Translations under genes and position numbers: made by a program
In this document: positions 24,272 to 24,703 of the stretch, piece after piece
Position numbering within the stretch: the first letter of the stretch is position 1
Layout: each line of letters opens with the position of its first letter
The notes under the pieces: model-generated
Told to the model about the DNA's origin: nothing
Database searches by the model: none
The model's input: the letters and a program-made list of their open reading frames with translations, nothing else
DNA from: Promethearchaeia archaeon
GTDB lineage: Archaea; Asgardarchaeota; Lokiarchaeia; Sigyniarchaeales; SOKP01
Direction: 5' to 3'
Length of the DNA stretch: 64,000 nucleotides
NCBI GenBank assembly: GCA_029856145.1
Contig: JAHQWK010000023.1
Coordinates: 1-64,000 of the forward strand

Positions 24272-24333
24272 TCTCAGAATTCTTGCGGAATTCACAATTA
24301 AATCCTAACATTTTATGATTTAATTTTTTGAGA
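24272..24333 (-). ncRNA. 3'-UTR three-helix RNA element, copy 1
   Basis: Minus strand UCUCA-AAA-AAUUAAAUC[AUAAAAUGUUAG]GAUUUAAUU-GU-GAAUUC[CGCAA]GAAUUC-UGAGA, starting 8 nt after the TAA. Confidence 0.7.
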
Positions 24334-24341
24334 ATTATTGA

Positions 24342-24479
24342 TTATTTTTTATTTGCTTCTGTTTCTCTTAGTTTTCGCAGTTTTTGTGCTCTTCGATACC
24401 ACATATTAAGCATTCCTCAACTAGTACTATAGCAATCATCATCAAACTCAAGATCCAAATAGTCTTCTTGATCTTCCAT
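24342..24479 (-). CDS. Putative 45-aa selenoprotein / TGA-readthrough peptide, copy 1
   Basis: MEDQEDYLDLEFDDDCYSTS-TGA(24417-24419)-GMLNMWYRRAQKLRKLRETEANKK-TAA; SD AGGTGA 10 nt upstream. Confidence 0.6.
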
Positions 24480-24640
24480 TATTTTATAATCACCTATCTT
24501 CTAAGTGTCTCAAAATAAATATGAGATATTAAAGTGGCGTTTATAAAAAATAAAAACTCAATTGCGAGTAATAATTTTTTATAATCACTTACGTAGAAAT
24601 CTTAATTTCCAATAAAAGAGAATGAAATTTTTTGTTTTAA

Positions 24641-24703
24641 TCTCGAATTCTTCGCGGAATTCGTAAGAATAGATCCTAGCTTTTTATGATCTAGTTCCTG
24701 AGA
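24641..24703 (-). ncRNA. 3'-UTR three-helix RNA element, copy 2
   Basis: Minus strand UCUC-AGGAACUAGAUC[AUAAAAAGCUAG]GAUCUAUUCUU-AC-GAAUUC[CGCGAA]GAAUUC-GAGA, starting 5 nt after the TAA. Confidence 0.7.

Follow-up and report, generated by a model that had tools for sequence, protein, structure and literature searches.

Two small reading frames on the minus strand of an archaeal contig are each interrupted by one TGA and followed by a three-helix RNA, which raises the question of whether this RNA can be a SECIS when the AUGA/GA core is absent from it. The window—the whole 64,000-nucleotide stretch that was analyzed—is contig C23 of a genome (G000) with 30% GC, and the two frames, A and B, lie between a UDP-sugar dehydrogenase gene and a 92-codon gene. 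What genes the genome contains, including selenoprotein genes that bear a lokiSECIS, suggests Lokiarchaeia. It is highly probable, as judged from sequence comparison, that the RNA is a Lokiarchaeia-type 3′-UTR SECIS without the core, which would read the UGA ~83–86 nt upstream as Sec to give two ~50-residue selenopeptides. The features concerned are:

22789–24177, plus strand: UDP-sugar dehydrogenase gene, one flank of the mini-gene pair
24271–24334, minus strand: element B, candidate core-less SECIS; P1 UCUC/GAGA, P2 loop at 24316–24305, P3 at 24293–24277 with loop CGCAA
24342–24479, minus strand: mini-gene B, candidate selenoprotein, 45 codons plus TAA; acidic N-terminus, C-Y-S-T-S-U
24417–24419, minus strand: in-frame TGA of gene B, codon 21
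24490–24494, minus strand: candidate SD-like GGUGA upstream of gene B, picked from sequence alone
24640–24704, minus strand: element A, candidate core-less SECIS, with P1, P2, and P3
24645–24662, minus strand: third hairpin (P3) of element A, with CGCGAA as its loop; corresponds to the hairpin with a GC loop that follows the GA in canonical Asgard SECIS
24676–24687, minus strand: apical loop of P2 in element A, NNN-AAA-NNN-UAG; fits the lokiSECIS signature (adenines, terminal AG)
24709–24864, minus strand: mini-gene A, candidate selenoprotein, 51 codons plus TAA; MSEWK...H-C-T-G-U-G-I-I-D..., basic C-terminal helix
24790–24792, minus strand: in-frame TGA of gene A, codon 25, CxxU-like
25106–25384, plus strand: 92-codon gene, the other flank

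Both mini-genes are unannotated, and a Pfam search with A and B gave no family for either. Past C-Y-S-T-S-U, the B peptide runs into an amphipathic basic helix with W-Y-x-R. Profile comparison of A with B was weak (probability 23.7%); that they are paralogues is plausible. The natural Cys alleles of B, searched against 1.8 billion representatives, retrieved nothing beyond near relatives within the family and two repeat proteins that are spurious. The predicted peptides very probably represent two undescribed selenopeptide families; going by the families named in each source, neither A nor B figures in the 11 archaeal families that a 2026 review counts (PMC13188914) or in the seven from Asgard archaea in PMC11227280. 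The peptides are apparently missing from genus g23. Neighboring genes (UDP-sugar dehydrogenase, coiled-coil, membrane protein) keep their position across relatives, yet are variable and offer no functional clue. Many relatives have a ~200-residue membrane protein gene at window 24880–25100 that is missing from the window's genome; a rhomboid protease (21926–22600, plus strand) and a small RING-like zinc-binding protein with a weak Pfam match (25680–25883, plus strand) are commonly found near the locus in relatives. Additional copies of gene B and its element in another genome (L069; G005 C1:188000–193500) adjoin a run of N; they could stem from a duplication or from an error of assembly.

The fold of each copy of the element has three helices: P1, which closes it; P2, of 11 bp with a loop of 12 nt; and P3, a hairpin of 6 bp. 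In element A, P1 is AUCUC/GAGAU (24704–24700 paired with 24644–24640), and P2 pairs 24699–24688 with 24675–24665, leaving one bulged C; the P2 loops of the two copies are AUAAAAAGCUAG and AUAAAAUGUUAG. An earlier sequence-only reading of this DNA had placed both copies at these coordinates, 5–8 nt after each TAA, with the third hairpin GAAUUC-CGC(G)AA-GAAUUC in both, all of which we confirm; the copies are on the minus strand, and the offset from TAA to UCUC is 5 nt (A) and 8 nt (B). Its first hairpin is likewise paired, but the 6–7 bp that it assigned are really an 11-bp helix, with the bulged C in copy A. Folding compared with shuffles gave z scores of −2.8 (copy A) and −2.6 (copy B), and single-copy folding left the strand undecided, copy B being equally stable on the plus strand; across homologues, 100 G-U pairs vs 21 A-C favor the mRNA strand, as the same reading had it. 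Compensatory changes were seen at 5/22 pairs in A, 7/22 in B, and 17/22 in a family-wide set whose alignment was fitted to the model, and the covariation score was reached by 0/500 shuffles. Lack of covariation in a larger alignment had been named as grounds for rejecting the structure; the pairing is instead kept via compensatory changes, which affect all 11 P2 pairs, including the positions of GA/AA in lokiSECIS. An Rfam scan of the element gave chance matches only. In many genomes, a stop codon falls inside the element, so that the reading frame extends into P1 and P2.

By DNA search, the region was recovered throughout the genus. The covariance model built from A copies had two strong matches in this genome (85.5 and 54.2 bits; the next scored 24.6), and the count is again exactly two at every one of 30 orthologous loci, so that the element is not a chance match. 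Kin among the genomes compared are not independent. The joint model R2, trained on mini-gene elements only, found the element in 105/131 genomes of one family, in 0/19 other genomes of the order, and in 0/126 genomes of a phylum-wide draw from outside the family. The distance from UGA to element is 83–86 nt here, 84–87 nt in genus g1, and 68–96 nt family-wide; in genera g22 and g25, a single element downstream of B is common to A and B, and the distance is ~250 nt where one element serves both. This family-wide spread and the shared element rule out a ruler mechanism with a fixed distance, which the genus g1 values had suggested.

How does the element relate to described SECIS? Published models comprise lokiSECIS type I (Mariotti et al. 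2016, PMC4989117), given there as AUGA followed by a stem of 9 bp, an A-rich loop of 11 nt with AG at its end, and lastly GA, and the Asgard eSECIS-like model (Huang et al. 2024, PMC11227280). Like lokiSECIS, the element has an A-rich loop ending in AG, with the signature AAA-N4-AG in 60/60 and 25/26 copies (85/86 aligned), and it lies just 3′ of, or overlapping the end of, in-frame-UGA genes. It can also be shared by two cistrons, as one lokiSECIS is by an HdrA-VhuD pair (PMC4989117). Unlike lokiSECIS, it has no AUGA before the stem (RUGA occurs on the 5′ strand in 2/60 and 1/26 copies) and no unpaired GA/AA after it, these positions being covarying Watson-Crick pairs; absence of the core was thus correctly called by the sequence-only reading. 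The stem is 11 bp rather than 9 and the loop mostly 12 nt rather than 11; the length from base to loop is equivalent, the 11-bp P2 matching a 9-bp stem plus two G-A pairs. Having no core, the element falls outside lokiSECIS as published, and very probably works like one.

Canonical elements were located in this genome for four VhuD genes, VhuU, PrxL, two SelD genes, and two uncatalogued genes. They carry a small hairpin after the GA, with GC or GUG in its loop, and a closing helix is evident in most. An automatic scan detected P3 behind 19/24 Sec-VhuD genes from six families vs 1.9 expected, the misses being mostly wrongly picked stems. SelD elements of another class have P3 most clearly in two of four cases, with loops CGCAA and UGCGA. 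Since canonical Asgard SECIS have the same third hairpin and closing helix, the shared frame is a three-way junction in which the core is apparently dispensable. The notion that the element is unrelated to described SECIS is not supported, as it has the apical loop, the length of the helix, the third hairpin, and also the closing helix in common with the canonical SECIS of this genome. The third helix sets the element apart from the published lokiSECIS models, and is not mentioned in the available text of PMC4989117 or PMC11227280; a text search of the literature, mostly without subscription papers, returned no three-way or core-less Asgard SECIS. Model R1, which is too sequence-specific, had no significant match at canonical SECIS loci, so that the kinship rests on comparison of motif and architecture and on a hand-made score. 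This core-blind score was designed after the element was seen, its loops having been learned on other genomes; genome-wide, it puts element B in 4th place and element A in 23rd.

The next best R2 matches lie behind Prx-like genes with UxxC. R2 matched 23 of 30 orthologous Prx-like loci, each time directly behind the stop, on the gene's strand, and without an AUGA core; these matches are weak (20–39 bits), and elsewhere in the 99.5 kb R2 found nothing except a second paralogue. There is no AUGA-type element within 600 nt of the Prx-like gene on C32. In another family (G060), where HdrA has three UGA and VhuD two (L148 and L162, C11:385500–391500), a core-less three-helix element is the only one within 2.5 kb. 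That the element is specific to the mini-gene family, as had been supposed, is not supported, the core-less form standing also behind Prx-like and HdrA-VhuD genes. G057 has an AUGC intermediate, and the stop is followed by no element in eight VhuD genes with Cys only. The Prx-like gene on C32 (L182; G000 C32:19943–19440, minus strand) encodes a second Prx-like selenoprotein with F-R-D-I-N-U-P-F-C and a core-less three-helix element behind its stop; its family has TGA in 41/41 matches.

The element also tracks the codon. On a tree of gene B built without the recoded codon and holding six Cys sequences, there are four changes to Cys, at least three of them forced, and a single origin of Cys is rejected (p-AU 8.5e-6). 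Nothing stands behind Cys-B in G032/G087/G029 or in the P0012 contigs, where A keeps its TGA and element. The other two Cys lineages retain a recognizable element whose decay is modest: that of G021 scores 52.9 bits, the lowest of its group (55.5–76 in genus g1), and that of P0014 41.9 bits, again the lowest (49–58 in genus g20). Upon the change from Sec to Cys, then, the element is lost or relaxed as a SECIS would be, being absent in two lineages and mildly decayed in two. In G024, gene B is deleted and a 37.5-bit remnant of the element is left. The link to TGA genes, the exchange with Cys, and the loss together with TGA in two lineages bear out the suggestion of the sequence-only reading that this is a UGA-recoding element.

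The alternative that fares best, though it is unlikely, is that the element does another job on selenoprotein mRNAs (stability, 3′-end protection, or selenium-responsive decay) while recoding is directed otherwise. Its location where the mRNA ends, immediately ahead of U-rich tracts and facing a convergent gene, would suit such a role, as would the lack of a core thought essential for SECIS function. Against this, the element occupies the canonical SECIS place with the same frame, and no other SECIS candidate lies near the mini-genes, the Prx-like gene, or the G060 HdrA-VhuD. The two lineages in which the codon became Cys lost the element and kept the gene intact, which likewise disfavors the stability element that the sequence-only reading had entertained.

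With recoding by a core-less SECIS as the preferred reading, the codon itself can be considered. With stops read through, gene A homologues have TGA in 106/106, none having Cys, and gene B family matches have TGA in 62/66 and a Cys codon in the other 4. Every natural replacement of TGA seen, in these four B exceptions and two metagenome proteins, is TGT or TGC; because Cys alleles exist, what selection keeps is a full-length product with a thiol or selenol. The codons past TGA are under purifying selection, as pN/pS over the next 15 codons is 0.44 (A) and 0.31 (B), and they include conserved motifs (I-I-D in A, W-Y-x-R in B). The terminal stops of A and B vary freely between TAA and TAG. On these comparisons, the TGA of A and B is a sense codon. 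The genome encodes tRNA-Sec, SepSecS, EFSec, and two SelD, along with a PSTK-like gene that scores below the curated cut-off. No more than 7 kb takes in SepSecS, tRNA-Sec, and EFSec (L118; G000 C8:11000–19500), and the several small genes between or beside them could include an adaptor candidate. Public protein sets give Trp at the Sec site of gene B in P0003–P0010, P0013, P0016, and P0017.

Such database versions with W are what speaks for a reading in which the structure downstream stimulates decoding of UGA as a standard amino acid (Cys, Trp, or Gly) rather than as Sec. We consider this very improbable: in the one Trp homologue checked, P0004, the gene caller had rendered TGA as Trp, genomic replacements are all to Cys, this genome uses TGA as a normal stop (14% of stops) and has the Sec machinery, and catalytic UxxC sites are followed by the same element. 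Least probable of all is that UGA is a true stop, giving 20–24-residue peptides, and that the element is a terminator or small mobile repeat, as its two tandem copies and inverted ends might suggest, for neither TAA nor TAG ever replaces TGA, later codons are conserved, Cys read-through alleles exist, a terminator scan found nothing, and the generic terminator or MITE that the sequence-only reading had weighed would not be confined to two strong copies per genome, always in the orthologous place and not widespread behind ordinary genes.

For the core-less SECIS, the following mechanism can be proposed. P1 would close a three-way junction in which P2 carries the AAA...AG loop and P3 a GC-containing loop, ordinary Watson-Crick pairs standing where the AUGA/GA kink-turn core would be. 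EFSec-GTP-Sec-tRNA, directly or via an adaptor, may recognize the P2 loop and P3/junction rather than a kink-turn, and Sec-tRNA would be delivered to a UGA 70–250 nt upstream, or farther for HdrA. In both peptides, Sec and a Cys close to it, as CxxU in A and as Cx4U in B, may form a redox or metal-binding center, borne on an amphipathic basic helix. How archaeal SECIS reach the ribosome without SBP2, which is reported absent in Asgard archaea (PMC11227280), is a stated open question (PMC4989117, PMC11881835), and a lokiSECIS construct was non-functional in M. maripaludis (PMC11881835).

Like eukaryotic SECIS, the element lies in the 3′-UTR, would act at a distance, and has unpaired adenines about one helical turn above the base of a helix. 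Eukaryotic SECIS consist of an SBP2-bound kink-turn core and an AAR loop; in the element, a three-way junction replaces the internal loop and there is no tandem G-A kink-turn core, and as it has no GA/GA quartet it offers no SBP2-type site. Methanococcal SECIS (PMC9622424, PMC11881835) are similarly archaeal and 3′-UTR, with a short distance to UGA (88 nt in fruA), but the element lacks their GAA/A bulge and G-C clamp, and the GAA in its P3 is Watson-Crick paired and covaries (GAA/UUC to GAG/CUC). The bacterial SECIS is a coding-region hairpin with its apical loop 16–37 nt after UGA; the element starts 83–86 nt after. VhuU, an archaeal selenopeptide of ~50 residues, likewise comes from a tiny gene that lacks annotation, has one UGA, and is served by a SECIS ~80 nt downstream; A and B differ in showing no sequence likeness to it by eye (no DxC-U-xxC motif), no hydrogenase context, and no Pfam family.

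The AUGA/GA core is the basis of the published account of the archaea-to-eukaryote transition. We lean, with reservation, towards a different one, in which the working part of Asgard SECIS is a three-way junction read via the AAA...AG loop and the GC-loop P3; the core would be optional, being absent in at least three gene lineages (the mini-genes, the Prx-like paralogue, and HdrA-VhuD), and eukaryotes would have retained it while the third helix disappeared. On this account, the kink-turn core would have been made essential only later, in eukaryotes, through SBP2. The core-less element brings to light an overlooked third helix in Asgard SECIS; natural core-less elements, together with that helix, indicate which nucleotides matter and supply direct mutants. 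Core-based searches miss predicted selenoproteins such as A and B.

Two further genes of this genome have a canonical SECIS with P3. One (L116; G000 C9:170431–170910, plus strand) encodes a 160-residue protein with adjacent TGA-TGA; the protein has no Pfam family and is not among the selenoprotein lists in the published texts available, and relatives occur in 104/121 genomes of the class, nearly all with two or three TGA. The other (L117; G000 C26:76399–76617, plus strand) encodes a 73-residue protein with a single membrane helix and GGGG-U-G-C, and its Gly-rich GGUG motif is, we presume, reminiscent of eukaryotic SelK. The TGA of this gene is retained in 15/15 genus matches.
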